A stretch of DNA of 64,000 bases from Kiritimatiellia bacterium (lineage in GTDB: Bacteria > Verrucomicrobiota > Kiritimatiellia > RFP12 > UBA1067). Where the stretch lies: positions 3,433-67,432 of the forward strand of contig JAGBZX010000006.1 in assembly GCA_017628025.1 (NCBI GenBank). Reading direction: 5' to 3'. Below are positions 18,780-64,000 of the stretch, piece by piece. Both the position numbers and the translations under genes were made by a program. The notes below the pieces were generated by a model that had not been told where the DNA came from, searched no databases, and worked only from the letters and a program-made list of their open reading frames with translations. Each line of letters starts with the position of its first letter. Within the stretch, counting starts at the first letter, position 1.

Positions 18780-20882
18780 TTAAGCATCAAGCTCAGCGAG
18801 AGCCGCCTTGCGAGAGAGCTTAATTCTGCCGCGCTGTTCATCAATATCAATGCACTTGACCTTGATGATGTCTCCGACTTTACAGACGCCTTCCATTGAT
18901 TTGAGGAACTTGTCAGAAAATTCAGATATGTGGCAAAGACCTTCAAGTCCAGGGAGAATCTCGACAAATGCGCCAAAATCCTTGATGCTTACAACTTTAC
19001 CTTCATATGTTTTACCGACTTCGGCGACTGCAGATACCTTGCTGACTTCGAGCTTGGCCGCATCCATTGACTCTTTTGACGTAGCGAAAATCGAAACCTT
19101 GCCATCATCATCAATATCAATCTGGGCGCCAGTCATTTCGACAATTGCACGGATATTAGAGCCGCCGGGACCAATAAGCGCGCCAATCTTATCGACCGGA
19201 ATCTGCATCTCTTCAATCCTCGGCGCAAACTTATTAAGTTCCGCGCGGGGTGCCGGGATAACCGTTTCCATGTAATCGATAATTTTGAGTCTTGCGTCAC
19301 GGGCAGCCTTAATGGCATCCTCAACGAGATCCCATGAAAGACCACGAAGTTTAAGGTCTACCTGGAAGCCAGTTATACCCTGCTTTGTGCCGCCAATCTT
19401 AAAGTCCATATCGCCACAATGATCCTCCGCTCCGAGAATATCGGTAACGAGCACCTTCTGGCTTTGATCTGCATTCGTAAATAGACCGATTGAAATACCA
19501 GCAACAGTGCGCTTAAGCGGAACGCCAGCATCCATAAGAGCTAGGCAACCATTGCAGATAGACGCCATTGACGAAGAACCATTTGAACCCATAATCTCAG
19601 AAACAACGCGTATCGAGTATGGGAAATCATCTGGAAGGACTTCAGCAATTGAGCGCTCTGCAAGAGCACCGTGACCGATTTCTCTACGACCTGTTGAACC
19701 TAAGCGACCAACTTCACCCGTGCAGTAAGGCGGGAAGTTATAATGAAGCATGAAACGCTTTGAAGGTTCGCCACCAGTGACAGAGTCAAGCTCTTGTGCA
19801 TCTTTCTTTGTGCCGAGCGTAACAGCTGCGAACGACTGAGTTTCGCCGCGTGAGAAAATCGCACTACCATGAAGACGAGGAAGAATACCAACCTGAGCCG
19901 TCAAAGGACGAATTTCATGCTGTGCACGACCATCGATACGCTTGCCATGAACGAGAACGTTGTTACGAACGGTCTCAATTTCAAGAGCATCAAAGAGATG
20001 AACAAACTTAACCGCGTCAATTTCTGGCCACTTCTCAGAAACCTTCTTAAGGAGATCTTCCTTAATAGCAGAAACCTTACCCTGACGCTCAAGCTTACCC
20101 TTGATAAGAAGCGCAGCAGCGAGAGCCTCACCGCCCTCTTTGCGAATGAAATCCATCTGATCTTGTGGCTGCGGGACATCTACGATTTGCTTATCGGGCA
20201 AACCTAGAGAGCGGCGCATTTCAATCTGGAGATCAATAATCTTCTCAACTTCTTCGTGAGCACGCTTAAGAGCAGCAAGAAAATCTTCATCGCTAATTTC
20301 TGCAGCAGAGCCCTCCATCATAAGGAACTTACCACGGATACCAGCATAGAGTAGATCAATATCACTCTTTGCTTTCTGCTCGTGCGTAGGGTTAATTACC
20401 CACTCTCCTGCAATGCGACCGATACGGACGCACCCAATAGGTCCCATAAAAGGAATCTCGGAGATATGAAGCGCGGCAGATGAAGCATTAACAGCGAGGA
20501 AGTCTGCCTCACGTGTGCAGTCGCACTGAATTAATGTTGAATTAACCTGAACGTCATTATAATAACCATCAGGAAAGAGCGGACGAATCGGACGGTCGCA
20601 CATACGCGCCGTAAGAATCTCCTTCGACGTAGGACGAGCTTCACGCTTAAAGAACCCGCCAGGGAACTTGCCTGCGGCATAGAACTTCTCACGATATTCG
20701 CACTGAAGCGGGAAGAAGTCAATACCTTCACGCGGCGAGTCCGTATTTGTCACCGCTGTAAAAACGGTGTTGTCACCGTAACTAACCGTGACAGCTCCTG
20801 CCGCCTGAAGCGCCAAAAGCCCAGTCTCTATAACGAGGTCCGTCCCCGCTATATTGACTTTGAACTGCTTTGTACCTTGCAT
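18780..20882 (-). CDS. pnp: polynucleotide phosphorylase
   Basis: 700 aa with two RNase PH domains plus KH and S1 domains (C-terminal GKVVSIKDFGAFVEI). Classical rpsO-pnp arrangement. Confidence 0.97.
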   Translation of the reverse strand: MQGTKQFKVNIAGTDLVIETGLLALQAAGAVTVSYGDNTVFTAVTNTDSPREGIDFFPLQCEYREKFYAAGKFPGGFFKREARPTSKEILTARMCDRPIRPLFPDGYYNDVQVNSTLIQCDCTREADFLAVNASSAALHISEIPFMGPIGCVRIGRIAGEWVINPTHEQKAKSDIDLLYAGIRGKFLMMEGSAAEISDEDFLAALKRAHEEVEKIIDLQIEMRRSLGLPDKQIVDVPQPQDQMDFIRKEGGEALAAALLIKGKLERQGKVSAIKEDLLKKVSEKWPEIDAVKFVHLFDALEIETVRNNVLVHGKRIDGRAQHEIRPLTAQVGILPRLHGSAIFSRGETQSFAAVTLGTKKDAQELDSVTGGEPSKRFMLHYNFPPYCTGEVGRLGSTGRREIGHGALAERSIAEVLPDDFPYSIRVVSEIMGSNGSSSMASICNGCLALMDAGVPLKRTVAGISIGLFTNADQSQKVLVTDILGAEDHCGDMDFKIGGTKQGITGFQVDLKLRGLSWDLVEDAIKAARDARLKIIDYMETVIPAPRAELNKFAPRIEEMQIPVDKIGALIGPGGSNIRAIVEMTGAQIDIDDDGKVSIFATSKESMDAAKLEVSKVSAVAEVGKTYEGKVVSIKDFGAFVEILPGLEGLCHISEFSDKFLKSMEGVCKVGDIIKVKCIDIDEQRGRIKLSRKAALAELDA

Positions 20883-21236: not shown

Positions 21237-21301
21237 TACGCCTCTATAATCAAGGCATCCGCAGCAGGGAAATCTCCTAAGACAGTCGCAGATTGGCTAG
21301 T

Positions 21302-21310: not shown

Positions 21311-21474
21311 AAAACAGGCACACCAACGCAAGTTTAATATTTGCGGAAAATTAATCGGTTACTCGGTTGTGCGTAGTACATTGCGCCTGCGGCGCGAGCA
21401 ATAAAACCGTACCTTCTAACTTCAGACCTTGTACCTCGTACCTTAATTTTTGCGAGCAAAGGAGTTCTAAAAAA

Positions 21475-22398
21475 CTAAAAACCAGGTAAATTTAGCTGGC
21501 CAGAAACACAAACCTTACGCCCTTTAGCAAGCGTAGGATCAGATGTATCATAAACAACAAATTTGATACCTTCAAAACGCTTCGAAAGTTCTCGTTTAAT
21601 GTAATCCGACACAGCTCTAACATTGCCCGGATCATCATCAGAAAAACCAATTGATACTGGCCGAGACGCATTACCAGAACGTCTAAGCATATGATAAACA
21701 TGTTCAACAAAATCTCTTATCGCAAACTCTTTAGCTAACTCTGGCTTTGAAGCATTCGTGGCAGTTGCTAATTTTTCCTGATAAACAGGGTCTGCAGCCA
21801 TTCTATCTTTAAAATCTTGAAATGTTACTGCTGAGTAGCGACAAAGAGAAAGATATCTATCAAGTTCTTCGGCATCAGTTCCAAACGACTCAACCTTATC
21901 AAAACATTTGCGATATCCTCTTAAAGAAGACATCATTTGCTCTCTATCTTCTTCTGATAACGCATAACGAATAAATACCCTAACAGCCTTCTCTATTGTC
22001 TCTGGGCTATGCCCACGGGCAGTTACTATCGCAAATATTCTTCCCTCACGAAGCGTGCGTTTAAGAGCCTCGTAACTAGGGCCAGGAATCTCTCCATGCT
22101 CAACTCGTTCAAGAGCTGCAATAGTATCATCTAAAAAGTGATTCTTATTAGGCTCATCAGAGAACGACTTAAACGCCTCCTGCCACCCTCCTTTTGGCGG
22201 ACGATAATTAGCAGTATCTGTCCTAATAACAGCAAATGTCGAAGTTGAAAGCTCCACCGGGCGCCATATACCATCTTCTGACTTATGCTCCATGCGTATA
22301 CGCGTAGGCATATGAAGGATATTGTCATCCCAATCAAATATGTAATACTTCAAATCGCGGTCGATAACCGCTTCATTTACATAAGGAATTTCTGACAT
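21475..22398 (-). CDS. hypothetical protein, HAD-like hydrolase fold suspected
   Basis: About 307 aa. DWDDN (DxDx-type motif I), IVTARG (motif II-like) and GFSDDD (motif IV-like). ORF-track start 22401 is TTG; the ATG at 22396-22398 overlaps the upstream stop (TGATG). Confidence 0.5.
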   Translation of the reverse strand: MSEIPYVNEAVIDRDLKYYIFDWDDNILHMPTRIRMEHKSEDGIWRPVELSTSTFAVIRTDTANYRPPKGGWQEAFKSFSDEPNKNHFLDDTIAALERVEHGEIPGPSYEALKRTLREGRIFAIVTARGHSPETIEKAVRVFIRYALSEEDREQMMSSLRGYRKCFDKVESFGTDAEELDRYLSLCRYSAVTFQDFKDRMAADPVYQEKLATATNASKPELAKEFAIRDFVEHVYHMLRRSGNASRPVSIGFSDDDPGNVRAVSDYIKRELSKRFEGIKFVVYDTSDPTLAKGRKVCVSGQLNLPGF

Positions 22399-40116: not shown

Positions 40117-40845
40117 ATGCAAAACGAAATATTTTCTAGAGCTAGGCAGTTACTTGGTGATAAGACTATTGCCGTCTTATCAGAGGCTAAAATACTAATT
40201 GTTGGTACCGGCGGAGTTGGTAGCTGGTGCGCAGAAACGCTAGTAAGAACTAGTGCTATTAACGTAACTCTCGTTGATTGCGACATTGTCGCGCCTTCAA
40301 ATATTAATCGCCAGGCTATGGCAAAGCCTAGCACAATTGGCGAGCCAAAAGTTTTTGCACTAAAAAAACATTTACTTGAGATTTCTCCAAATGCTAAAAT
40401 TGAAGCATATAATTTGAAATATGAAGTAGGATCCGCTGGGCATCCTCCCTTTGTATTTTCAAACTATGACTATGTTATTGACGCAATTGACTCTGTTGAC
40501 TCAAAAGTATCTCTAATAATTTCTGCTTTATCATCTGAAAATACGACTCTTTTCTCTTCTATGGGAGCAGCTTTAAGAACAGATCCAAGTCGCGTAAAAA
40601 GTTCTGATTTCAAAAAAGTAACCGGCGATGGTCTAGCAAGAGCCATTAGAGGAAGATTTAAAAAAAATCAAAGCTGGCCTAGCCGCTCCTTTACAGCCGT
40701 TTGGTCTGACGAAACACCTGTCGTTCAAGGCGTAGACGCGCTAGCAAGAGGCTCATTAATGCAAGTAACCGCCGCATTTGGGCTTAAACTAGCACAGCTT
40801 GTAATCTCTTCTGCGCAGCAAAAAGGCGCACAACACAAAGCTTAA
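40117..40845 (+). CDS. tcdA: tRNA threonylcarbamoyladenosine dehydratase (ThiF/E1-like, TcdA/CsdL)
   Basis: 242 aa with GTGGVGSW nucleotide-binding motif and DxD..SNINRQ, typical of TcdA. Confidence 0.8.
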   Translation: MQNEIFSRARQLLGDKTIAVLSEAKILIVGTGGVGSWCAETLVRTSAINVTLVDCDIVAPSNINRQAMAKPSTIGEPKVFALKKHLLEISPNAKIEAYNLKYEVGSAGHPPFVFSNYDYVIDAIDSVDSKVSLIISALSSENTTLFSSMGAALRTDPSRVKSSDFKKVTGDGLARAIRGRFKKNQSWPSRSFTAVWSDETPVVQGVDALARGSLMQVTAAFGLKLAQLVISSAQQKGAQHKA

Positions 40846-52802: not shown

Positions 52803-53246
52803 TTACTCATCAATATTGATAAGTTCAAGCGTATCGAAATTTATTTTACGGTAATAACAATTTCTGGGTTCTCCTGCCTTGTTCTTTGTATGGCAAATAC
52901 CACCGCGGCAAGGACGCACTAAATATAAAAGCGAATTTTGCTCGCAGTTGACATACGCCTCAATAAGGTCGAATGTTTCACCAGAAGTTTCACCCTTGAA
53001 CCAAATTTTATTGCGGCTGGTGGACCAAAGGATAAGTTTGCGCTTAGCAAAAGACTCTTTCATTGCGTGTTCATTCGTGTACGCAACGAGTATAACTTCT
53101 TTGGTATCAATATTTTGAATAGCTACTGGAATTACGCCTGGATCAATCTCGACACCAGATGCGCGCGAATCTGCGACTTGTTTGCCAACTTTCTCGAGTT
53201 TTGTAAAATCGAGAGTTAAATTCAACGATTCTTCAAGTTGCCCCAT
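52803..53246 (-). CDS. hisI: phosphoribosyl-AMP cyclohydrolase (monofunctional)
   Basis: 147 aa. WSTSRNKIWFKGETSGETFDLIEAYVNCEQNSLLYLVRPCRGGICHT matches the HisI core. Confidence 0.85.
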   Translation of the reverse strand: MGQLEESLNLTLDFTKLEKVGKQVADSRASGVEIDPGVIPVAIQNIDTKEVILVAYTNEHAMKESFAKRKLILWSTSRNKIWFKGETSGETFDLIEAYVNCEQNSLLYLVRPCRGGICHTKNKAGEPRNCYYRKINFDTLELINIDE

Positions 53247-53277
53247 AATTTTACCTAATTTGTGTTAATATTTGCGT

Positions 53278-53286
53278 ATTATATCA
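53278..53286 (-). promoter_or_regulatory. extended -10 element TGATATAAT upstream of hisI-oadGAB
   Basis: The minus strand reads TTTTTGATATAATAC, 31 nt upstream of the hisI ATG. Confidence 0.5.
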
Positions 53287-53359
53287 AAAAATATGTTCAT
53301 AATCCAGCAAATTTCACGCGGATTTTGATTCCAAAAATTGTACAATTAAATGAGTCAAA

Positions 53360-53750
53360 TCGGAAAGGCAAGGTGGCGAGGTGGCAAGGTGAAGAGAGGA
53401 TAGTTTGAGTGAGGGAGTTAGGGAGTGCAAGGTGAAGACTAAAGGTGAAGGTGAACAATGGAGAGTTAAAAGTTTGAGTTCGAGAGCGGAATAGTAAAAA
53501 AACGTACATTCTCTAACTCGAAACTCCAACTAATCTTAATCTTGTTTTTATTTCTTTGCTTTCGCTTCTTGGAGATTTGGAGTTTTGGAGGGATTGCGCA
53601 AGGCGGTAATGAAATCCACTCTTCACCTTCGCCTTCACCTCAAACTTTCTAAACCTCCTTAACCTAACTCAAGCTTTGCGTAAATCTCCAATTCTACTCT
53701 CCAACTCCCTCACTTCATCACTCATAACTCTCAACTCATAACTAGCCCCT
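53360..53750. repeat. approximately 390-bp imperfect, strand-asymmetric palindrome built from short words (GGTGAAG, GAGTT, GAGGGAG, AAAGTTTGAG)
   Basis: The plus strand is purine-rich and nearly C-free at 53365-53500 and pyrimidine-rich at 53608-53745. The reverse complement of the right arm is roughly collinear with the left arm (shared gtgagggagtt, aaagtttgag, ggtgaagg blocks). A nested inner pair lies at 53508-53530 / 53568-53592 around an AT-rich centre near 53550. Confidence 0.75.
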
Positions 53751-53761
53751 GAGCATCCTGT

Positions 53762-54718
53762 CTATTTCCAGCTGACCGTGCCGCTCTCGGAGATGCTCAC
53801 TTCGCGGAAGAAGTCAATGAGGTAGCTCTTGGCGCAGTGTCCATATGGATAGCCCGCAAACACAGGGCAGTCGAGCGTCTGCGCATAGACCGGCAGAAAG
53901 GCATCGAGCGCCTTGCGCTCCTCGCCTGCGTGGCGGAAATCCGCGAACACGACTGCGGCGGCATCCCTCAGGTAGCCGCTGTCGCGCATCGTCTCGAGGA
54001 ACTTCTTCAGGTCAGCCGCCGGATAGTGCGCCGTGCACTCGATGAACACCACCCTTCCCGCCGCAGAAGGCGCGAACTTCGTGGCGGTGGCGAGCCTGTG
54101 CACCCTTTCGAGGTGTCCGCCCATTGGCAGACCCTTCGCCGCGCCCGCCTTGAGCACCTTCACCTTCACTGGCTTGAGTGGCGCGCCTTCGAGCATCGCC
54201 CTGAACCACTTGGCGGAGGCCGCGTCCCATTGCGAAAACGACGAGATCATCGACCCAGAATACGGATGCCCCGCCTTCTGCGAAAGCATCGTGTTCACGA
54301 TAAGCGTTATGTCGCTGAATCCGACGACGCGCATCTCGCGCGAACGAAGCTTCTCCCAGTCAATCTTGCCAATAAGGTCGATGGCGCCCGACCCGCCGCG
54401 TGCCATGACGATGATGTCCACCTCTGGATCCAGCCACATCTTCTCGAAGTCCTTCACGCGGTCCTCGGCCGCCGCCCGCTCCTTCACGCGCACGAAGTCG
54501 CCGAGCTTCACCTTGTACCCGGCCTCCTCGAGCATCTGCACGCCCCTGTCGAGCATCCGGCGCTCCGGCACCGACGCCGGCGCCAGGATTCCCACCGTCT
54601 TCACGTCCTCGGGGAACAGCCCCTTCACGGACGACAATCTTCTCGCGGCGGGCTTGTCCGCTCCCATCGCAGTGCAGCAAAGCACCGCCCCGTACACCAA
54701 ACCTATCAACTTGACCAC
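53762..54718 (-). CDS. LD-carboxypeptidase / MccF-like serine peptidase (S66), apparently with signal peptide
   Basis: 318 aa with VGILAPAS, nucleophile motif GFSDIT and GYPYGH. The GTG start (54716-54718, AGGGG 10 nt upstream) gives a hydrophobic N-terminus VKLIGLVYGAVLCCTAMGA. About 62% GC. Confidence 0.8.
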   Translation of the reverse strand: MVKLIGLVYGAVLCCTAMGADKPAARRLSSVKGLFPEDVKTVGILAPASVPERRMLDRGVQMLEEAGYKVKLGDFVRVKERAAAEDRVKDFEKMWLDPEVDIIVMARGGSGAIDLIGKIDWEKLRSREMRVVGFSDITLIVNTMLSQKAGHPYSGSMISSFSQWDAASAKWFRAMLEGAPLKPVKVKVLKAGAAKGLPMGGHLERVHRLATATKFAPSAAGRVVFIECTAHYPAADLKKFLETMRDSGYLRDAAAVVFADFRHAGEERKALDAFLPVYAQTLDCPVFAGYPYGHCAKSYLIDFFREVSISESGTVSWK

Positions 54719-54748
54719 TGACTACTGACCCCTAAGGACCATTAAGGA

Positions 54749-57700
54749 CTATCTCACCGTAAGAATGAATCCGCCGCGGTACCACTCTATTCCACCAAGT
54801 TCTCCGCCTGTATTTATCTTGCCTGACGAAACTCTCGATGCATAATCGCCGCCAGTCCAACCTTTGCCGTCGTTATGAGAAAGCGACATTACACGAATTT
54901 TAGTGTTATAGAAATAAAAATAAGAATCGGACGATTCAAAAATAATATCTTTAACTTTCATGATTGCGCCGTCGCCAAACGACGATCCATCGTTAATCAT
55001 GCGTACATAAGCGCCCGATCCAATAACAAGCGTCGCTTTTTTGTAAGCAACCCTTGGATCACCGTCTGCCACCATCGGCAGCTGAGTAAGCCCTGTGCCA
55101 TAATTTGTATAGATGTACTGCCTGCCCTCGATGTAGATCGTGCCACCGTGGTGGCCGTCGCCAGGGAGTTCCTTGTAGATTGTACCGCCATGTGTGCCGT
55201 CGTTGTCGTTGTTCTGCGTTGTGATCGTAAGCGACGCAGAAGGAGACCAATCCGCCCCGGTGCGCTGGTAGATGGCGATTCTCCCCGCTCCGCCCTTCCA
55301 GCAGGTAAGCGGCTTTGTCGAAGATGTGGGGGCCGGTGCGGCAGTCACAAGGCCAGAGCCCTTCAGTGTCCCGACCTTGAGGCAGATCGCGCCAGGGGCA
55401 CCACATGCATTTGTGCCGCGATGCGAGCGCACGTTTATCTCCCCGTCAACCGTGAGGTCGCCGACGACATCGAGATATACCGCTCCCGCGCCGCCGCTCG
55501 CTCCGCCGGCGCCAGGTAGTATCGGCTCAAAGATGGAGTCGTTGCACGGCACATAGGTGCTGTTATATGAAATCGTACTGCCGTGCCCGCCACCGTTGGT
55601 GTTGCCGGCATTGTTCTTGGTGTTGTTCTTCGGCCCATACTGCGACTCAAAGCCAAGGCCAGAGAGTGCAATCTTCGCCCCTGCATCAATAGCCATGTCA
55701 CCGCCTACGGTCATGTAGATCCTGTACGAGAAGGATTTGCCGTTCGACGCGTGTTTCATCTCAGAGCCGCTCTGCATCCAGACATTGCCGCCAACGGCAT
55801 TAGGAGTATTCATGGAGCTCAAGGTTGCCGTCGCGCCGTTGCACAGGACGAAGTCCCCCGACATCGAAATCGGATATGCGGAGGTCAATGCCGCCTTGCC
55901 GCCATCCGCACCACCAAGGGTAATCGAACGGACGTTCACGTTTGCCGTCGAGCCGACAGTCACAGTGACAGTGCCTGACGTGGGGGCGATATAGACCTCG
56001 TCGTTCTCGCCGGGGACCTCGCCCGTCGACCAGTTCTCGGCCGTTCCCCAGCTGCCGCTGCCAGGCGCGATCCACTCCACGATGTTGCAGCCGAAGTTCC
56101 AGTTCTTGGTGTTGCTGCCAGTGCCGGTAGCCTTCACCTCCGCGCCGCTCAAGGCGTCGCTGTCGCTCACGGTCACGTTGCGGACGCGCTGCCTTGCCGT
56201 AAGGGCGAGCGCCCACTGCTCGCCGGGAACCGTGCTTCGTAGGATGTGCGGGTCATTCCCGCGAGACTCGATGTTGCACTGCGCGAACCCGAACTCCTCG
56301 CCGGCGCCGAAGGCGAACGTAATCGCGTCTGGAACAACGCAGTAGAACTTGTCCGCCACAAATCCGGTCGGGAGCGTCAAAGTGCCGCCCGCCTTCTCGA
56401 CATAGACGTTCTCCGCCGTCCCCGAGGCAATGTCAAGTACAGTGTCGCCGTCGCCAAACACCCCGATCCTGTTGCCGCCGTAAACTATCGTTCCGGCCGA
56501 ATAGAAGGCGTTCGAAACGAGGAGACTGGAGCCGCTGAGCGTAATTGTCGCCCCCGCCTCGTTCGTAATGGAACACATGTAATAGTCCGCGCCCTCGAAC
56601 ACGGGGTAGTTGGCAAGCCCGGACGGGATCCGCAGGCGATCGCCGTTACGGGGCGCGATGCCGACATCCCAGTTGGCGGGATTGTTCCAGCGCGTGTCAG
56701 AGCCGCCGGTCCACGTAAACAACGTGCCTTCGGGTATCTCGCCCGAAATGAAGCCCCAGTTGTCGTTGCCGCCGAGATTCGCTGAGCGAAGCGCGGTCGG
56801 CGAAACGCCGGTGGCAAGGCTGTTGCTGACCGCAACGTACTCGAAGTTCGCGAGATCTGCATACGGGCCCACGATGTTCATTGTCCACGTGCCGTTCGGC
56901 GTATCAGGCTGGAGGATAAGAGGCTTCTCCTCCGTTCCGCGAAACTCGACGGACCCGTTCTCGAGGTTGCGAATCTCTGAGCCCGCGGCAAACGAAATCG
57001 TCGCGCCCGGCGAGTTCGTGCAGAAGATGCTGTATGCCTTTACAAGCCCCTCGACGGAGAACGAGCCGTCTTCGCCGGGCATTATCTCGATCGCGCCGCC
57101 ACCCGCGACAGTGTGGAAGTCGCCATTGCCCGTCACACTTATGCCCTTCTCGACCTTGAGCGTGACGCCCGATGGGATTTCAAGGCGAGCGTAGTTCTTC
57201 ACTGAGACCTTGCCGAACGGCACATCTATGTCGACTATGGCGTCGTCGAGGCGGCACGCCATTCCCGCATAGGCGGAAATAGAGTCATAGCCCTGGGCAA
57301 TCAACTCGCCCCTGTCCTCGGCGTCGTTCGCGTTCTCGACATAGATCGATCCAACAGAATGATAGCCGTTGTATTGCTCGCTCAGCACGGGATTGCGCCC
57401 GGCGCGCATTAGCCCGGTGTACGCCGAAATGTCGTTCGCGACATACTGCCTCACGGCTATTCGCCCACCGCCGCCGTGCGAATAGTTCGTTGCCCTGCCG
57501 GCGCATGCGTTGATTTCGCCATACCCGACAAGCGTTCCGCACTCAATCCAGACGCTTCCGCCAGCAGGAGAGGAATGGGTAGTGTTGCCGCCGTTTGCGG
57601 AGACAGATCCGTTCAGCGTAAAGGTCCCGTTCGTGGCCGAGATGTGCACTACGCCGCCGCCGTAGTTGTAGGAGCCGCTGTATCCGCCGCCGCTTCCAGG

Positions 57701-60532
57701 CTCGTCTGGGCGGCGGATGGACCCAAAGCACTTCCTCGGGGAAATGGCGTATGTCGACGACGAATAGCCGCCCTGCGACGTGCCGCCATACCCCGCTCCC
57801 ATGTATGCAGTACCTTCAGCAGGCATTGGCCCCATGCCGTAGTAGTAGCCCTTCGCAGTCACGTTGATCGACGCGCCCTCTTCTATCGTCACGTCCCCAC
57901 CGACTTCGAGGTTAAGCGCATACTTCTTTGCGTTGTCGGCGGTGCCGTGGCATGTGTGCGTAAGCGTTGCCCCCTCGCGCAGGATGACGTCGCCGGAGAC
58001 TTTGTTCGTGGCGAGGCCGCAGGCGAACTCAATCGCAATTGAGCCCTCGCCGGGGCCGAAGCCGACTTCAAGCCCTGCAAGTTCAAGCGCATTCGTCACG
58101 TTGACCGTCACACTCACGCCTTCTGGCGGGCGCGTGACTACGACTGCGCTTCCGGGAGAGGGAAGTATGCCGCCCTGCCAGTAGGTCTCGTCGTAGAAAT
58201 CGACTATGCTGGAGGTCTCGCACGTGAAAATGCAGTCGGAGGCGCCGCCGAAACGCGCGCTGAACGAAGCGGGCGAATCGACCTCGAACGAAAACTCGTC
58301 TTCAAAGATGTCGCCGACGAGCGAGATATCGCCTTCCCACTGCGTGAAGCGGCCCTGTGCGGTAGGAACCGCCGTCACCGTCAGCATAGCGCCGTCATCT
58401 TGCCAGCCATTGCCGGTAACAGATCCGAGAAACGCGTCGGAGGAAACAACGGAGATGTACGACTGCGTCTTCCAGTGCCACGAGAGGACACCGAAGCCCG
58501 AGGGCGTCACAATGCAGGTGGTGTCGTCCTCGCCGGAGATTGGCGTTGTCGAATCACGCACGACGACGCCATCCATCGAAAGCGTCCATCCGGTGCAGAC
58601 CGCCCTTCTCCCTTCCGAGATGACGACTGTGGCGGGCGCGGTGTACGTCTTCGGCGTCCCCGCGACAACGTCATCGTCATATCCGTACGCAATCTCGCCG
58701 GAGCCGTATTCAACACCCGCGTCAGTCACCACCTGGACGACGGTCGAAAGCGCCGTTGAGCCGTCTACCCTTATGAAGTTTGCGTTGTTCATCGAGTCGT
58801 ATTCGGCCTTGACCCACTTGGCAGACCGTGGGATGCGCGTAATGCGGGCTTCGTCTACCTGAAGAGGCATCGCCTCCCCGCCAAACTTGAACGCAGCAGA
58901 CGCCTTCCCTATCGAATCATATGGTTTAGAGATGGTGTTTGTGCTTTTGCTTGCACCGTTAACATACGCCGCTATAGTATTGTTGGCGGCAACATAGACC
59001 AGATAGTTCCAGTTGGCGACAAAGCTCGGACAGCTGTCTGCATTAAGGGCGGCGGAACTGCTGGCCTTGCTGTTGCCATAGTATAGCTTCATGTAGTTGA
59101 CTCTTGTGTCGTATATCTGCTCGACGTAACCGCATCTCAGGGATGCGCTCCCGTAGTTGGCAAACTTGCGCATGATGCTGTTGTAGGACCCTACGCCATC
59201 CGGCTTCTTGAACCAGCAGGAGATGGTCAGGCTGTCGGGGAGCCCGTTCGTCGGGTGGATCATGTAGTCGTCGTAGTTTGCGCCTTCAAGCCCGCGGGTG
59301 AGGTGCAATGCATTGCCGCAGAACGGGGAGTTTGTCAGGGTCGTCACGGAATACCCGGTCGTGGAGTTGTAGATGTTCGTCACGTTCCAGCCGTGCCCCG
59401 TCTCGTCCGCGACACCCGTCTCGGGGTCGTAGGAATTCATGTGCCAGACGCCAACGTATTCCGACCAGACCTCTGTCGAAGCAGGCCTCGCGGCAGCGAC
59501 GCCGGAACCCCAGAACATGTAAAACTTCGTGTCCGTTCCGGAAATCTCGGGCATCTTCACCCAGACGAGCGAGGTGCCGTCCGTATCCCAAAGCTCGATG
59601 TCGCAGGCAAGACGGTTGAGGCCGTCTGCGTCAGTGGCGAAAAAGACGTCCGCGCCGCCCGCAAGGCACTTCGAATAGCTGAATGCGGTTATCGTCTCGG
59701 GCGAAACCCTCACGAGCACAGGCAACCTCTTCTGCACTTCATCGCCGCCCGCATAGCCCGCAACGGTAAGCTCCGTCCTGAATCCGGCCTCGGGCATCGT
59801 GGTTGTCGGGTACACGCTCGATGTCCTCGGGCCCGCCTTGAAAGGGCGGTCGCCGAGGCTGCCGTAGAAGACTTCATTCTCAGTGTCAAACATGCCGACC
59901 GCGCCGTCTGAATCGCGAATGGCCGGCACAAAGTTGCGGTAGTAGGAGCTGTCGGAGCTCTTTTGTATAGTAAAGCCGTAGATCATGAGCGCCGCCTTGA
60001 TATACGAGGCAGACCCCCCATTTGGTCCGCTCATCCACGCGATGTAGATGTTGTTTGTCGAAGTATACGTCTTTGCAGACAGAGTGGAAAGACCCAGGGA
60101 TGTCGAGCCGCCTACGGAAAACGTGCCGTTGTTGCACTTCCATATCATGCGGCTGTGCAGATTGCGGCCAGTGCCTATTCCAATGCTGGTGGAAGATCCG
60201 GTGGTGTAGTTGCCCAATTTGTTGTAATGAAAGCGCATCACGTTCCATTTCTCGCCATTCTGCCTTGTCGTGATGGCAACCGGGTTTACGTTGTGCCCAT
60301 CGTCAGCGCCTCCGAAAAGGGCCTGTTTAGGGTCGTTGCTCAGAAGCCGCATGTCGGCCGAGACTATAAGCCCGGACTGCGCCTTGATACCCGTGTCGAT
60401 GTATTGATGGCCGTTCGACTCGATCCACTCAAGCTGGGTATAGCCAGTTGGCAGGTCCGCAAACGCGGCAAAACCGAGAAAAACAAACACACCAGCAATG
60501 ACTGCCGCCATCTTTCCAATAAGACTCTTCAT
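54749..60532 (-). CDS. giant secreted multi-domain surface protein (lectin-like jelly-roll, DUF2341-like, LamG, B-repeat-like, Gly-rich beta-helix modules)
   Basis: 1927 aa, ATG start, signal peptide MKSLIGKMAAVIAGVFVFLGFAAFA. Domains by aa position: 26-235 YTQLEWIESNGHQYIDTG ... FVPAIR..GMFD..FYG module; 250-345 DUF2341-like (LPVLVRVS ... DIELWDTDGTSLVWVKMP ... FYMFWGS); 355-590 LamG-like (LTISCWFK ... RSAKWVKAEYDS). There are two 185-200 aa Gly-rich modules ending in GGGGRIAVRQY and GGAGRIAIYQR. Confidence 0.85.
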   Translation of the reverse strand: MKSLIGKMAAVIAGVFVFLGFAAFADLPTGYTQLEWIESNGHQYIDTGIKAQSGLIVSADMRLLSNDPKQALFGGADDGHNVNPVAITTRQNGEKWNVMRFHYNKLGNYTTGSSTSIGIGTGRNLHSRMIWKCNNGTFSVGGSTSLGLSTLSAKTYTSTNNIYIAWMSGPNGGSASYIKAALMIYGFTIQKSSDSSYYRNFVPAIRDSDGAVGMFDTENEVFYGSLGDRPFKAGPRTSSVYPTTTMPEAGFRTELTVAGYAGGDEVQKRLPVLVRVSPETITAFSYSKCLAGGADVFFATDADGLNRLACDIELWDTDGTSLVWVKMPEISGTDTKFYMFWGSGVAAARPASTEVWSEYVGVWHMNSYDPETGVADETGHGWNVTNIYNSTTGYSVTTLTNSPFCGNALHLTRGLEGANYDDYMIHPTNGLPDSLTISCWFKKPDGVGSYNSIMRKFANYGSASLRCGYVEQIYDTRVNYMKLYYGNSKASSSAALNADSCPSFVANWNYLVYVAANNTIAAYVNGASKSTNTISKPYDSIGKASAAFKFGGEAMPLQVDEARITRIPRSAKWVKAEYDSMNNANFIRVDGSTALSTVVQVVTDAGVEYGSGEIAYGYDDDVVAGTPKTYTAPATVVISEGRRAVCTGWTLSMDGVVVRDSTTPISGEDDTTCIVTPSGFGVLSWHWKTQSYISVVSSDAFLGSVTGNGWQDDGAMLTVTAVPTAQGRFTQWEGDISLVGDIFEDEFSFEVDSPASFSARFGGASDCIFTCETSSIVDFYDETYWQGGILPSPGSAVVVTRPPEGVSVTVNVTNALELAGLEVGFGPGEGSIAIEFACGLATNKVSGDVILREGATLTHTCHGTADNAKKYALNLEVGGDVTIEEGASINVTAKGYYYGMGPMPAEGTAYMGAGYGGTSQGGYSSSTYAISPRKCFGSIRRPDEPGSGGGYSGSYNYGGGVVHISATNGTFTLNGSVSANGGNTTHSSPAGGSVWIECGTLVGYGEINACAGRATNYSHGGGGRIAVRQYVANDISAYTGLMRAGRNPVLSEQYNGYHSVGSIYVENANDAEDRGELIAQGYDSISAYAGMACRLDDAIVDIDVPFGKVSVKNYARLEIPSGVTLKVEKGISVTGNGDFHTVAGGGAIEIMPGEDGSFSVEGLVKAYSIFCTNSPGATISFAAGSEIRNLENGSVEFRGTEEKPLILQPDTPNGTWTMNIVGPYADLANFEYVAVSNSLATGVSPTALRSANLGGNDNWGFISGEIPEGTLFTWTGGSDTRWNNPANWDVGIAPRNGDRLRIPSGLANYPVFEGADYYMCSITNEAGATITLSGSSLLVSNAFYSAGTIVYGGNRIGVFGDGDTVLDIASGTAENVYVEKAGGTLTLPTGFVADKFYCVVPDAITFAFGAGEEFGFAQCNIESRGNDPHILRSTVPGEQWALALTARQRVRNVTVSDSDALSGAEVKATGTGSNTKNWNFGCNIVEWIAPGSGSWGTAENWSTGEVPGENDEVYIAPTSGTVTVTVGSTANVNVRSITLGGADGGKAALTSAYPISMSGDFVLCNGATATLSSMNTPNAVGGNVWMQSGSEMKHASNGKSFSYRIYMTVGGDMAIDAGAKIALSGLGFESQYGPKNNTKNNAGNTNGGGHGSTISYNSTYVPCNDSIFEPILPGAGGASGGAGAVYLDVVGDLTVDGEINVRSHRGTNACGAPGAICLKVGTLKGSGLVTAAPAPTSSTKPLTCWKGGAGRIAIYQRTGADWSPSASLTITTQNNDNDGTHGGTIYKELPGDGHHGGTIYIEGRQYIYTNYGTGLTQLPMVADGDPRVAYKKATLVIGSGAYVRMINDGSSFGDGAIMKVKDIIFESSDSYFYFYNTKIRVMSLSHNDGKGWTGGDYASRVSSGKINTGGELGGIEWYRGGFILTVR

Positions 60533-60569
60533 GCCTACACCATGCCTCCTATCGACTATATTTTAAGCA

Positions 60570-60598
60570 ATTATATACAATTTTGCGCAGGAAGTCAA
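60570..60598 (-). promoter_or_regulatory. consensus sigma70 promoter TTGACT-N17-TATAAT for the 1927-aa gene
   Basis: The minus strand has TTGACT at 60593-60598 and TATAAT at 60570-60575 with a 17-nt spacer, in an AT-rich patch of the 127-nt intergenic region. GGAGG lies downstream. Confidence 0.6.
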
Positions 60599-60659
60599 CC
60601 AAAAAGCCAGAAAAGGCAGTGTCGCAAACCGCCCAACTACCTAACCACCAGGCTGCGAC

Positions 60660-62963
60660 TTACTTAAGAAATATCACGAGCCCGGGAGCGGCGGTGGCAG
60701 TGAACTTGCCGTCCTCGCCCTCCGCCACCCTGTAGCGCTTGGCAAACGTCAGCGCGCCGTCGGGGTCGAAATCGGTCACGAGCCGCCCGACTCCATAGAC
60801 GGAGAACACGCCTGTGTACGTGCCGCCGAGAAGCGTCAGTCTGCCGCGGACGGCGAACGGAGCCGCGACCGTGCGCCCCGCGGCGCGCAGGGTAAGGGAA
60901 TCTCCCGCCGATATGGTGTAGCTCCCGGAATCGACGTCCTCGTACAGCCAGAGGCTGTCGCCGGCGACGTGGGCGGCCATTGCATCGGCAAAAGCCGGAT
61001 AGAAGACGTTCCCTATGCGCGCGGCGCTTCCGCTTTCCGCCACAATGCTGCGCCCGTCGTCCCATTCGTACTTCGAGTAGCCGCTCGCTATGAACTCGTC
61101 GGGGGCTACGCCGTGTATTCCGCCGGAGATGTATATGTTGCCGTACTTCCCGCTTGTCGAGGTCTTTTCACTCGCGTGGCTCCTGTTTGAATACGTGCCG
61201 GTGTTTTTCATCGAACCCAACTTGAAATCACCCCCCGAGATGTACATCTTGGCAGTTGACGAGCCGCTCGACTGCGAAATCATTGAAAGAATCGTCGACC
61301 CGAAGAATTGCCCGCCTGTGACGTAGAACTGCGTATTATGGCTTCTCTCAACCGAAGCCGACGAGACGCACGACATCTTGCAGTTCCAGAATTTGCCCCC
61401 GTATATCCGCCCCGTCGCCTCCCCGTTATATTTGGTGCCTGAGCCGCTGTGCCCGCTCCATGAGCAGATGTCGCAGTTGAAGAACGTCGGGACCTTCTCC
61501 GGATCCTGCCCGATATGCCATGTGGATGAATAGTTGTAGGCTTCCACAAGCGTATTTCGGAACGTCCCGCCGCGAATTTCGATAAGCCCGCTCCATATGG
61601 GGAGAATCATGGAGTATTCGAATTTCCCGCCCTCGACGATGATGTTCGCCGCAGGCGAGACGCCGCGGGCTTCGTGATATGAGGCGGAAAGGTAGACATT
61701 GTAGAAGTTGCCGTCCTGAATGGTAAGGGAGCCGCCGACCGTGTTGGCGTTTACCCTGAATAGACCGCCATTGGAAACAAATATCCCCTTCTCCCCGCAG
61801 GAAAGCGTTATCTCCCTTGCCCCAATGTCTATGGTCTGGGAATCGGCTATGTAAAGGTCGCGCAGGAGGGTGATCGTGGCCGCCGACGAAGTGGGGATTG
61901 CCGCCACGGCGTCAGCAAAAGTGGCATACGTCTCGTTGCCCACTGCAAACGGGTTGGAAGAGTCGTCGAAGTTGAGAAGCCCCTCAGCGTTGACTATCGA
62001 GCCGCCCTTGAGCGCACCGCCGCTGCAGTCCGCGTCAAACGTGCCGCCAAGGACGTTGATCACGGCAGTGGAGCCTTTGTTGTATGCTTCGGTGGAGACA
62101 TCGCCAAAGAACTTCGACTTGGCGAAAGTGCCGCCGTGCATGTTTATGGTCGAAATGGAATTATTGCCCATGGTGCCGCTGTCCGTCGGATAGCACGTCG
62201 ACTCGAAGAAAACGCCGTCAAAGGAGCCGCCGTAGATGTCTATTGTAGGCAGATGCTTGGGCCCCGAGCCTGTCGTGACCGTCGTAAAGAACTTTCCTCC
62301 TGAATACGTACCGGAATAGACCTTGATGTATCCATACTGATTCCCAGAAGACGGGTTTTTGTTTGCGAACTGGGCGCGCGACTCGAACGTGCAGTCGGTG
62401 CAAGCAGGGCCAGTCGGCGAGCCGTCCGCCCCCATCGTGAGAGTGCAGTCGTAGTTCTGCGAAAGGAACGTGCACCGATCAAACGCCCCTTGCGATACTT
62501 CCGTCATTGCCGCGTTGAAGTCGCTAAACGACGAGTCTGCGAAGCTGCCGCCGGAGATGTAGATCCTTGCGCTATTGTAGGTGCTGCAGGTGACTTTTGA
62601 ATAGTCTCCGCCTTCCACATACAGGCGCGTCGAGCTGCCGTCCAGCTTCATGCTCATTCCGGAGAATTTCCCGCTGCGCACGCGAAGCTGGCCCGTCTTC
62701 AAAAGGGTAAAACCCTTCCCAGAAACACTGAAAGCACCGCCTTCCAGATATATGACCTTGGAGTTGTTCGTGATGTTGATGTCGAGGGCGCAGTCGCCGA
62801 GAAGCTCGATAGTCTGGCCGGTCGTGGCGGCGGTGAACGCGGCGGGGAGCGTATCGTACTGGGCCCCCGTCTCAGATATCCTCGCTACATCGGCGGCATG
62901 CGCCAGGGGCGACACGCCGACAAAGAGAATCCCGACAACGAACCATACCGCCGCATTGCGCAT
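60660..62963 (-). CDS. secreted beta-helix repeat protein with three-fold modular organisation and GGxF rungs
   Basis: Start set to ATG 62961-62963 (MRNAAVWFVVGILFVGVSPLAHA signal peptide, GGTAGGA upstream); ORF-track start 62990 is TTG. It has at least 14 h-GG-x-(F/Y) motifs and three modules opening with IG..xY.TFADA.AA....TI.LL.D-like segments. Confidence 0.8.
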   Translation of the reverse strand: MRNAAVWFVVGILFVGVSPLAHAADVARISETGAQYDTLPAAFTAATTGQTIELLGDCALDINITNNSKVIYLEGGAFSVSGKGFTLLKTGQLRVRSGKFSGMSMKLDGSSTRLYVEGGDYSKVTCSTYNSARIYISGGSFADSSFSDFNAAMTEVSQGAFDRCTFLSQNYDCTLTMGADGSPTGPACTDCTFESRAQFANKNPSSGNQYGYIKVYSGTYSGGKFFTTVTTGSGPKHLPTIDIYGGSFDGVFFESTCYPTDSGTMGNNSISTINMHGGTFAKSKFFGDVSTEAYNKGSTAVINVLGGTFDADCSGGALKGGSIVNAEGLLNFDDSSNPFAVGNETYATFADAVAAIPTSSAATITLLRDLYIADSQTIDIGAREITLSCGEKGIFVSNGGLFRVNANTVGGSLTIQDGNFYNVYLSASYHEARGVSPAANIIVEGGKFEYSMILPIWSGLIEIRGGTFRNTLVEAYNYSSTWHIGQDPEKVPTFFNCDICSWSGHSGSGTKYNGEATGRIYGGKFWNCKMSCVSSASVERSHNTQFYVTGGQFFGSTILSMISQSSGSSTAKMYISGGDFKLGSMKNTGTYSNRSHASEKTSTSGKYGNIYISGGIHGVAPDEFIASGYSKYEWDDGRSIVAESGSAARIGNVFYPAFADAMAAHVAGDSLWLYEDVDSGSYTISAGDSLTLRAAGRTVAAPFAVRGRLTLLGGTYTGVFSVYGVGRLVTDFDPDGALTFAKRYRVAEGEDGKFTATAAPGLVIFLK

Positions 62964-63045
62964 TTTCCTACCTGCTGCTTGCATAATCAAATCCTCTCCG
63001 CTAACTATTTATCGCATCAAAAGAATACCTCCTTTGAATCATTGT

Positions 63046-63073
63046 ATTTTACCAAAAGTTCCCGAAATGTCAA
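63046..63073 (-). promoter_or_regulatory. sigma70-type promoter TTGACA-N16-TAAAAT for the 767-aa gene
   Basis: The minus strand has TTGACA at 63068-63073 and TAAAAT at 63046-63051, with GGAGG downstream. The -35 overlaps one arm of a 7-bp inverted repeat (TGTCAAC / GTTGACA at 63068-63074 and 63094-63100). Confidence 0.5.
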
Positions 63074-63259
63074 CGCCCGACAGTTATCCAAAAGTTGACA
63101 GGGAACACGGCATCATTTTTCATAAGCATAACACCACATCTCCCGCATTCAGATCCAATACAGACCCTATACCAGCAAAGGAACCCGAAAAAGTGAAGAC
63201 CCTGCGAAGCCCAATAAAATCGGGGGTGTTGTGGGGTCTGGCACCAAAAGGGTCTACAC

Positions 63260-64000
63260 CTACCGCCAAATAGGAACAAAGAGGATGTCTACGCTCGTTC
63301 CTTCCTTTGGATCGCGTTCGTATCTGAAGAATCGCCAGAGGAAGGACGTTTTCGTATATCCGTTCGCCTTCGAGTCATAGGTAAAGCCTGGGAACACGTC
63401 GAGCGAAACATCACCGTTCTCCTCTTCCCAGTCCCAGAGCTTCAAAAGTACCTTCCTGTTCGCGTAACTCTTGTTCGTCATGCGATCATGCTCATGTGAC
63501 GCGTTGTAAAGGAAGAAGAATAAAGACGATTCACCTTCTTCAATGTCTGAAATTTTCTTACGCGTGCTTATGTCGAAAGTAACTTCACGCTCGCCTTCAT
63601 ATCTGTATGCGAGACGATTGCCCTGATTGTGTTCATACGTGATTTTATACTCCTTCCCCTTCCAGGGAAGTCTGCCCGACACAATACGGTCATTATCGGA
63701 TACAAGACACAAATCGGCTTTGTTATATGCATAAAAATATGTACCATCCCTCCTCGGCTCGATCGACTCAATTTCACAACACTTCTTCTTGACGTTCCAT
63801 GTCCAGTTTGTATAGACCGAATCCCAAATTTTTATCTCTTCAGGCAGTTTATCCATGTCGAGACAAGCGTACTTCCTGTCATAATTCGCATCCTTCTTCT
63901 TATTGTAGAACGGGAAGAGCCACCATCCGGTTTTACGCCCCGAGCGCTTGCCGGCAAGAGAAAGTGCGTAATAACTGTTGGTCTGACTCGTCCCGCCGCC
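63260..64000 (-). CDS. hypothetical protein (C-terminal part; ORF open to the right edge)
   Basis: The frame of the 198-aa ORF stays open upstream of its first ATG through position 64000 (..GGGTSQTNSYYALSLAGKRSGRKTGWWLFPFYNKKKDANYDRKYACLDMDKLPEE..), so the gene probably starts outside the window. No family recognised. Confidence 0.6.
   Translation of the reverse strand, partial: GGGTSQTNSYYALSLAGKRSGRKTGWWLFPFYNKKKDANYDRKYACLDMDKLPEEIKIWDSVYTNWTWNVKKKCCEIESIEPRRDGTYFYAYNKADLCLVSDNDRIVSGRLPWKGKEYKITYEHNQGNRLAYRYEGEREVTFDISTRKKISDIEEGESSLFFFLYNASHEHDRMTNKSYANRKVLLKLWDWEEENGDVSLDVFPGFTYDSKANGYTKTSFLWRFFRYERDPKEGTSVDILFVPIWR

Follow-up and report, generated by a model that had tools for sequence, protein, structure and literature searches.

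What is the 390-nt sequence that lies between an LD-carboxypeptidase gene and a hisI-like gene of a Kiritimatiellia bacterium, and has it been kept for a function or merely been produced by mutation? The element occurs at positions 53360-53750 of a 64,000-nt stretch of DNA (the window; assembly GCA_017628025.1, contig JAGBZX010000006.1) and had been described, from the letters and their open reading frames (ORFs), as a strand-asymmetric imperfect palindrome made of short words (the sequence-only reading). It occupies most of the 515 nt from the LD-carboxypeptidase stop codon to the hisI-like start, a gap which in this member of the gut/rumen Kiritimatiellia spans the upstream stop codon to the hisI-oadGAB promoter. 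The locus has been remodelled by mutation and is not conserved: word units have been gained and lost, a 228-nt indel has occurred, and DNA has been replaced beyond a breakpoint. We therefore favour, with moderate confidence, the explanation that the element is a compound, degenerate simple sequence repeat (SSR) quasi-palindrome, remodelled by slippage and recombination, whose only effect, if any, would be that of a passive hairpin in the 3′ tail of the LD-carboxypeptidase gene.

The asymmetry of the element is pronounced. On the plus strand, 53365-53500 contains 54 G, 49 A and 25 T with only 8 C in 136 nt, and 53608-53745 contains 50 C, 42 T and 40 A with only 6 G in 138 nt. When the 64-kb window was scanned with sliding segments of 120 nt, all eight of the most G-skewed segments and six of the eight most C-skewed ones, including the top five, were located in or beside these arms. 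The parts of the element are as follows.

53365-53500, plus strand: left arm, G/A-rich and C-poor, with the words GGTG(G/A), GAGGGAG, GAGTT and AAGGTGAAG
53367-53391, plus strand: tandem array of the 8-mer GGCAAGGT (aggtggcg / aggtggca / aggtgaag), 3.1 copies, period 8
53501-53607: AT-rich centre, containing a C-rich word block and a G-rich array
53507-53530: C-rich word block of the centre (CTAACTC, AACTCCAAC), predicted to pair with the left arm
53569-53590: G-rich TTGGAG(A/T)TT array of the centre, 2.8 copies, predicted to pair with the right arm
53608-53745, given for the plus strand: right arm, rich in C and T and poor in G, which mirrors the left arm as a collinear inverted repeat

The tandem 8-mer run, which had been noticed before, was recovered by Tandem Repeats Finder (TRF) together with five more arrays of period 6 to 8 inside the element (53407-53427, 53429-53455, 53569-53590, 53621-53640 and 53715-53743). 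Six arrays thus fall within 390 nt, whereas the remaining 63.6 kb have 24, counting every period. All of them are degenerate and have only 2.6 to 4.3 copies; the longest has 4.3 copies with 72% matches, and the words are mixed. ACTCATAACT is present twice, as had been reported. GGTGAAG occurs three times and its complement CTTCACC twice, slightly fewer than the at least four and three that had been counted; GGAG is found six times and CTCC five times. The main words of the arrays are GGTGAAG, GGAGTT, TTGGAG and their complements; on either strand, the 5′ half is made up of the G-rich words and the 3′ half of the complementary ones, which results in a quasi-palindrome. As this order is identical on both strands, it is uninformative on the direction of transcription; on the transcribed (minus) strand, the left arm is the downstream, C-rich arm. 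The element was said to contain no credible ORF, and indeed the ORFs of 41-71 aa that run across it overlap one another.

Arms that aligned no better than shuffled sequences would have spoken against a palindrome. When the left arm was aligned to the reverse complement of the right arm, the local score was 32, compared to 18.7 ± 2.9 for arms shuffled separately at matched composition (2 of 1000 shuffles reached the score), and the global score was 25, compared to 9.8 ± 2.9 (1 of 1000). A control with a reversed arm already scored 25 (local) and 20 (global), so that shared word content provides part of the signal and collinearity the rest. Folding was likewise stronger than in shuffled sequences, with -121.1 kcal/mol (z = -4.0) for RNA from the plus strand, -115 kcal/mol (z = -2.8) for RNA from the minus strand, and z = -2.2 for the DNA. 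While the palindrome was thus upheld, its proposed architecture was not: instead of a single hairpin of about 150 bp, a branched fold is predicted, with a mismatched outer stem and two inner hairpins, and the blocks that had been taken for a nested inner inverted pair are predicted to pair mainly with the outer arms and not with each other.

The exact hisI protein was found on 12 contigs. The GC content rises from about 41%, as measured up to about position 53750, to about 58% between 53760 and about 63000, beyond which it drops again; the junction between this high-GC island, the element and hisI is the same in five assemblies from different samples (L001, L002, L003, L005 and L006). In L004, a contig of a metagenome-assembled genome (MAG) at NCBI (GCA_045646825.1), the island is replaced at its hisI-proximal junction by other upstream DNA of 52% GC, and the element lies beside a different upstream gene, which codes for a protein kinase. 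Among these strains, whose hisI proteins are identical, alignment distinguished three structural alleles, namely the window type (L002, L005 and L006), the L001/L003 type and the L004 type. The last two differ from the window as follows.

53422/53423: 29-nt indel, with extra units of the CTCACTCC type in L001, L003 and L004
53430-53457: 28-nt block AGGTGAAGACTAAAGGTGAAGGTGAACA, with one copy in the window allele and two in L001/L003
53581/53582: 8-nt indel of one unit, with an extra CTCCGAAT unit (in hisI orientation) in L001, L003 and L004
53663/53664 (about): end point of homology with the island-less L004, inside the right arm

In L001 and L003, the two copies of the 28-nt block flank 228 extra nt, which include a unique segment of 191 nt. 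The L004 type has the extra units and a 97%-identical copy of most of this segment, and the AT-rich centre is missing. Positions 53664-53750 are confined to the island-bearing lineage. The earlier suggestion of a recombination scar is supported, in the sense of a junction, by the end of homology with L004 at about 53663 and by the 228-nt indel at a duplicated block.

Several short contigs from further samples (L007-L010 and L012) terminate exactly at or within the arrays, which might raise the suspicion that the assembly is at fault, through a fold-back chimera or the collapse of a repeat, for instance. However, the sequence of the element was recovered in assemblies of at least six samples by differing pipelines (ENA scaffolds, a MEGAHIT k141 contig, an NCBI MAG), and since sequence and junctions agree between independent assemblies and the three alleles are coherent, we regard an artefact as effectively refuted. 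Contig ends at the arrays are what mixed alleles (population heterogeneity) or repeated k-mers would cause.

The 191-nt segment, which is absent from the window, is found at 5570-5760 in L001, 5570-5760 in L003 and 2587-2763 in L004. Several small hairpins lie in it (CCGTAT...ATACGG, GGGGTCTGTCCCC and GCGCATATTTGCGC), Rfam gave no match, and no further copy was found. One of the hairpins, the 13-nt GGGGTCTGTCCCC, is shared with the DNA upstream of hisI in L094, a closely related lineage. A 57-aa ORF predicted in the extra DNA of L001 has a frameshift in L004 and is thus considered spurious.

Differences by whole units point to the dynamics of simple sequence repeats. In the mechanism that we propose, replication slippage would amplify words, inverted duplication or template switching would yield complementary arrays, and recombination between repeated words would delete or reshuffle segments. 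The element would have no sequence-specific function. As a 3′ tail, its branched hairpin may passively hinder read-through or 3′ decay, to a degree that depends on the allele, but such an effect is unlikely to be the reason for its existence. Quasi-palindromes are known from Escherichia coli mutagenesis as indel hotspots in which template switching raises or lowers complementarity, and the element resembles them as an imperfect inverted repeat that is a hotspot of indels; template switching, which we can only infer for this locus, is a mutational mechanism and not a described class of genomic elements.

Among described classes, the closest are the long simple sequence repeats (LSSRs), which have units of 5-11 nt with heptamers being commonest (Mrazek et al. 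2007, as reported in PMC4679880). In the element, head-to-tail units of 1-11 nt occur above chance, and unit-sized copy number polymorphism is seen between strains (+8 nt, +29 nt), but there is no long uninterrupted array of a single unit. Because the longest array has so few and imperfect copies and the words are mixed, the element represents a degenerate compound locus rather than a classical LSSR. As far as LSSRs are treated in PMC4679880, the element shares with them the short head-to-tail units, among which heptamers and adjacent lengths are favoured, the bias to non-coding DNA, the strain-variable copy number and the ascription to slippage; it differs in that its arrays are very short, degenerate, mixed in words and laid out as an inverted pair, while the LSSRs are described there as direct repeats.

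A conserved RNA would be expected to recur, in sequence or structure, at this locus in related genomes. A scan with one genome per species gave 80 genomes with hisI identities of 82-90%, for the most part rumen and gut MAGs with Kiritimatiellia (or Lentisphaerae/Verrucomicrobia) in their titles; closer relatives (L093, L094 and L095) were reached via the protein database. None of the 80 species has a skewed element upstream of hisI. It is also absent from L093 and L095 (hisI 97% identical), where this position is taken by a divergent PepSY gene and an unremarkable spacer of 176 nt, and from L094 (92% identical), which has an unrelated spacer of 400 nt. Only the promoter-proximal 55-65 nt upstream of hisI are shared with these three. 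Four different upstream neighbours were found across close lineages, which makes this position a rearrangement hotspot. By these sequence comparisons, the element is young and species-specific.

The same distribution disfavours a conserved structured RNA, which had been among the suggested roles. No Rfam hit reached the gathering score in the window and nothing was found at E ≤ 1 in L001 or L004; a permissive search of 53200-53800 returned only chance-level eukaryotic hits at E ≥ 0.2 and no CsrB/Rsm match. Fold strength varies with the allele, from z = -8.9 in L001 (based on only 20 shuffles) over -2.8 to -4.0 in the window to -1.8 in L004, where the outer G-rich arm is missing and the fold is not stronger than in shuffled sequences. 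When the three alleles were compared for covariation between the arms, an apparent match of TTGGGAG to an extra CTCCCAA unit in L001 proved not to be used in the predicted fold.

Inverted arms, a position exactly at the GC jump from about 41% to 58% at 53760, the synteny break of L004 inside the right arm and the variety of upstream neighbours could alternatively be attributed to a mobile or integrated element, either one resembling a miniature inverted-repeat transposable element (MITE) or a REPIN, or the attachment-site scar of the 9-kb island. We consider this improbable. A second copy of the arms was found neither in the 64-kb window nor in the fetched loci, where only isolated 10-mers match, so that dispersed copies of the REP/REPIN or MITE kind are lacking there. 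The island-less L004 already has most of the element, and no clean empty site was found in the sister lineages. No direct repeats above chance are shared by the two island boundaries (53247-53800 versus 62900-64000), the tRNA scan was negative, and no integrase, transposase or RAYT-like gene was recognized among the island proteins by Pfam or NCBIfam. Metagenomes scanned for a 26-mer of the conserved flank near the promoter gave no hits. Three spaced AAGGTGAAG words retrieved more than 120 unrelated contigs, many of which may carry coding repeats, as the lengths of their matches agree with gaps that are multiples of three.

The island itself (53760-63000, about 9.2 kb of about 58% GC in a genome of about 41% GC, present in five assemblies) codes for the LD-carboxypeptidase, a 1927-aa LamG/DUF2341 protein and a 776-aa protein without family match. 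At its other boundary (63000-63260), inverted GGGTCT / AGACCC words lie in a gap of 270 nt; their sequence is unrelated to that of the element.

The suggestion of a genome-wide repeat family finds no support for this particular sequence, of which no second copy was seen in the 64-kb window or the fetched loci, but a looser class of word arrays is found throughout the clade. The intergenic DNA of the 80 relatives is full of arrays of 7-9-nt words, the unit of which varies by species and locus. In 43.75 kb of intergenic DNA (crudely defined), 19, 14 and 14 arrays with at least 2.8 copies were counted for periods 7, 8 and 9, compared to about 0.2 each in 20 dinucleotide-preserving shuffles. Arrays of period 7 or 8 number 44 in 56.8 kb of non-coding DNA versus 17 in 491 kb of coding DNA. 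There is a weak preference for co-directional gaps (19%, versus 12.5% for divergent ones). Examples from the clade are the following.

Array units: GTTAGTC, 9 copies; CATTCTAA, 9.5 copies; CATTCCAA, 6 copies; TCCAAACC, 6 copies; CTTCCACN, 10 copies
Further arrays: GAATGATC and GACCATTC
Paired words: TTAGAC with GTCTAA; GTTGGAG with CTCCAAC

Across species, the spacer at one operon junction can have between 10 and 258 nt, and the GTTAGTC spacers of five related species (94, 95, 95, 101 and 108 nt) are near 7-nt steps. Many spacers consist of a G-rich array followed by its complement, and inverted pairs of arrays with unrelated words are present in L017, L044/L082, L046 (two), L057, L061 (two), L071 (two), L085, L090 and L092. 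Since the relatives are full of word arrays and inverted pairs, the element of the window is best seen as one instance of a process that is typical of this lineage. The proposed sequence of slippage, inverted duplication and recombination may also be the source of the unrelated 7-9-mer arrays, often inverted pairs, between genes all over the clade. We found no description of such arrays in the class Kiritimatiellia in the open-access full-text literature.

Several individual arrays deserve mention. In L092 (3660-3940), five tandem 29-nt repeats based on GTTCAG (GTTCAGTTGTTCAGGGCGCTTCGCGCT) precede CTGAAC arrays in inverted orientation and a GC-rich hairpin; this region folds at -155 kcal/mol (z = -10). 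The hisI-oadG spacer of L043 (4445-4509, 65 nt) is entirely free of G, being composed of CTCCAAAC / CTTCCAAAC words, and extends from the stop codon to the next ATG without a Shine-Dalgarno sequence. In the window, a small AAGGTAC array at 21395-21450 (minus strand) directly follows the stop codon of the gene that ends at 21475 and precedes an rpsO-like ORF, showing the same array habit in weaker form within this genome.

Could the element nevertheless act on the genes between which it lies? All long ORFs of the window are on the minus strand with the single exception of 40117-40845 (plus strand), and the relevant features in transcribed order are these.

53762-54718, minus strand: LD-carboxypeptidase gene (Peptidase_S66 N- and C-terminal domains), last gene of the segment with about 58% GC, with its TAG stop codon at 53764-53762
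53276-53286, minus strand: extended -10 motif TGATATAATAC, probable promoter of hisI-oadGAB, with the element lying upstream
52803-53246, minus strand: PRA-CH (hisI-like) gene of 147 aa, which heads the hisI-oadG-oadA-oadB cluster downstream of the element

The right arm starts 17 nt past the stop codon, and about 80 nt separate the end of the element from the putative -10 element. The 11-mer TGATATAATAC also precedes two further genes of the window (at 21300 and 47426, minus strand) and is, judging from this recurrence, probably the extended -10 promoter consensus of the organism. The promoter of hisI-oad is thus placed downstream of the element, and the element, if transcribed, would be the 3′ untranslated tail of the LD-carboxypeptidase mRNA, provided that no earlier terminator exists. 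A promoter and terminator scan of 53100-53900 on both strands yielded no terminator-like site, in agreement with the earlier statement that the element does not resemble a simple terminator, and its only promoter-like match was on the wrong strand, within hisI. An intrinsic terminator is dismissed, as a stem-loop with a U-tract is lacking on either strand of this region. The genes behind the three copies of TGATATAATAC (21300, 47426 and 53276) include an rpsO-like and an argS-like one.

This arrangement allows for the main alternative explanation, in which the upstream transcript would end in a long hairpin that has been selected as an RNA structure and either insulates the hisI-oad promoter from read-through or protects the mRNA from 3′ exonucleases. 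The element may be an insulator between the island and this promoter, as the sequence-only reading had put forward, yet we consider a selected hairpin on the whole unlikely. In its favour are the placement between stop codon and probable -10 element, the lack of a canonical terminator between the two genes, and folds with z-values of -2.8 to -8.9 in two of the three alleles. Moreover, z is below -2 in 27 of 46 non-redundant spacers of at least 60 nt from the relatives, word-hairpins occur there between the oad cistrons, and stem-loops that set subunit ratios are documented for Clostridium cellulolyticum (PMC4423207). By analogy, such a hairpin would resemble REP/BIME sequences or the intergenic stem-loops that process or stabilize RNA. 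On the other hand, the closest sister lineages do without the element, the L004 allele has no outer G-rich arm and only a weak fold (z = -1.8), and there is no U-tract, although the organism has ordinary intrinsic terminators elsewhere, e.g. downstream of the gene that ends at 18780. In the relatives, sense and antisense strands fold equally well (19 against 26), so that an RNA-specific structure, which G-U pairs would make more stable in the sense strand, is not seen. The L092 analogue, although also upstream of hisI, is located between divergent genes and can thus not be a 3′ tail.

The SSR quasi-palindrome, which we continue to prefer, has to be weighed against several points that do not fit it easily. 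All 11 non-redundant oadA-oadB spacers of at least 60 nt fold at z-values of -2.7 to -9.4 although their sequences are unrelated (e.g. L046 6666-6775, L061 6886-7028 and L069 6609-6693); in many other species, oadA and oadB are just 10-30 nt apart. These hairpins could tune the ratios of the oad subunits. The non-random inverted layout, which recurs at operon junctions of relatives, hints at selection for structure, and the element may have a role in termination or RNA stability. When base pairs were counted in the stems predicted for the spacers of the relatives, those with a 5′ G exceeded those with a 5′ C (384 versus 229). The count is crude and the spacers are not independent; the excess needs explaining and, if real, might speculatively be ascribed to the avoidance of exposed C-rich RNA. 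Finally, the copy search within the genome covers 64 kb, and a dispersed family may exist elsewhere.

A further alternative is a Rho-dependent termination module. In this case, the 136-nt C-rich arm of the transcript, next to the hisI promoter on its upstream side, would serve as a rut site that is masked by the G-rich arm, an anti-rut partner which is transcribed earlier. Rut sites are C-rich and G-poor, and the minus-strand RNA of 53500-53365, with 54 C and 8 G, has this classic composition; the preponderance of G-first stem pairs in the relatives would fit the hiding of such RNA. However, a rut site should be unpaired, while the C-rich arm is predicted to be paired in the window and L001 alleles, and the sister lineages have not conserved the element. 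Resting on composition alone, this module has only a slim chance of being correct.

The repeated words (GGTGAAG, GGAG and CTCC) might instead be bound by proteins or ribosomes, as iterons, as an array for a nucleoid protein, as a sponge of GGA motifs for a CsrA-type protein, or as a mimic of Shine-Dalgarno and anti-Shine-Dalgarno sequences, which TAAGGAGGT and CACCTC indeed resemble. Protein binding has also been proposed for the TAACTGA heptamer repeats (PMC4679880). But the words are degenerate and irregularly spaced, their number differs between strains, no CsrB/Rsm or other Rfam family matches, no replication gene is nearby, and the G-rich words are predicted to be paired and not looped out. 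The analogues of the relatives show no GGA or Shine-Dalgarno similarity, being built from words such as CGAATG, GTTAGTC, TTAGAC and CTGAAC; the resemblance to the 16S tail therefore looks compositional, as had been considered from the beginning. A binding array is very improbable.

A number of other element types were rejected. Iterons are regularly spaced repeats of about 17-22 bp beside a replication initiator gene or an origin, while the units found here have 6-8 nt, are degenerate and irregularly spaced, and the neighbours code for a peptidase and a PRA-CH protein. CRISPR arrays have identical repeats of 24-48 nt with unique spacers between them, and neither the repeat search nor TRF detected a repeat family of that type, in accordance with the initial judgement. 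For triplex DNA (H-DNA), the longest pure purine run of 10 nt was judged too short. For a G-quadruplex, no G3 motif was found, only two weak two-tetrad motifs, of which the whole window has 27. An island attachment site was discarded in the absence of direct repeats at the ends, of a tRNA and of integrase families.

How does the element compare to the intergenic repeats of other bacteria? The short tandemly repeated repetitive (STRR) sequences of cyanobacteria are intergenic heptamer repeats. TAACTGA heptamer repeats are intergenic in Beggiatoaceae, Cyanobacteria and Bacteroidetes, with 169 direct sets and a single indirect set in one genome (PMC4679880), and GGGNATC repeats, which form G-quadruplexes, occur in Xanthomonas and Nostoc (PMC4692102). 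Common to all of these and the Kiritimatiellia arrays are intergenic tandem words that are typical of a lineage, often adjacent to stop or start codons, and variable in copy number. Yet the former are direct repeats that reuse one unit throughout the genome, while the units of Kiritimatiellia are locus-specific and often form inverted pairs; the element also lacks a quadruplex motif of three-G runs.

The REP, BIME and REPIN sequences of proteobacteria are dispersed multi-copy intergenic palindromes, which are mobilized by RAYT proteins and form hairpins that stabilize mRNA. Like these, the element is an imperfect palindrome between genes, located 3′ of a stop codon, with the potential to form an RNA hairpin and with a species-specific sequence; unlike these, it is single-copy in the DNA seen and made of tandem words. 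Intergenic stem-loops are further known to direct selective RNA processing and stabilization in operons for multi-subunit complexes (PMC4423207, PMC10311766), an example being the cellulosome (cip-cel) operon of C. cellulolyticum, where they set subunit ratios (PMC4423207). The hairpins between oadGAB cistrons of the relatives are similar, as far as sequence can tell; the window element differs, as it lies upstream of an operon promoter and not between cistrons.

A broader idea, to which we assign a minor probability, is that gut and rumen Kiritimatiellia share a clade-wide, previously undescribed way of building intergenic hairpins from self-complementary word arrays, in which the structure is selected while slippage leaves the word free to change. 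Selected roles might then be the adjustment of subunit ratios of the oadGAB type or the hiding of C-rich RNA from Rho, the latter of which would explain why the G-rich arm usually comes first, and the window element would be the recent birth of such a hairpin at a junction between gene and promoter. Selection on structure instead of sequence would make these loci a natural system for the origin and evolution of intergenic RNA hairpins and operon tuning, and at the same time hotspots of rearrangement and of MAG assembly breaks.

In itself, the element is modest and, as a product of SSR dynamics, ordinary in mechanism; the wider pattern of the clade is more useful. The locus accounts for a conspicuous sequence oddity and for metagenome assembly breaks in this species. 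The wider pattern indicates that intergenic hairpins can arise de novo from microsatellite-like arrays and turn over within a species, and it draws attention to a bacterial class in which arrays of 7-9-nt words and inverted pairs of arrays are unusually abundant between genes.

Two observations concern the hisI-like gene. Its PRA-CH protein scores below the NCBIfam cut-off for HisI (82.5 versus 126 bits), and a stand-alone PRA-CH gene is found immediately upstream of oadG in at least 55 of the 80 related species, an odd conserved pairing with an oxaloacetate decarboxylase operon. About 50 nt upstream of the putative -10 element of hisI, at 53336-53347, there is a perfect 12-bp palindrome, AATTGTACAATT, which is invariant in every allele whose sequence extends that far and may be an operator site.

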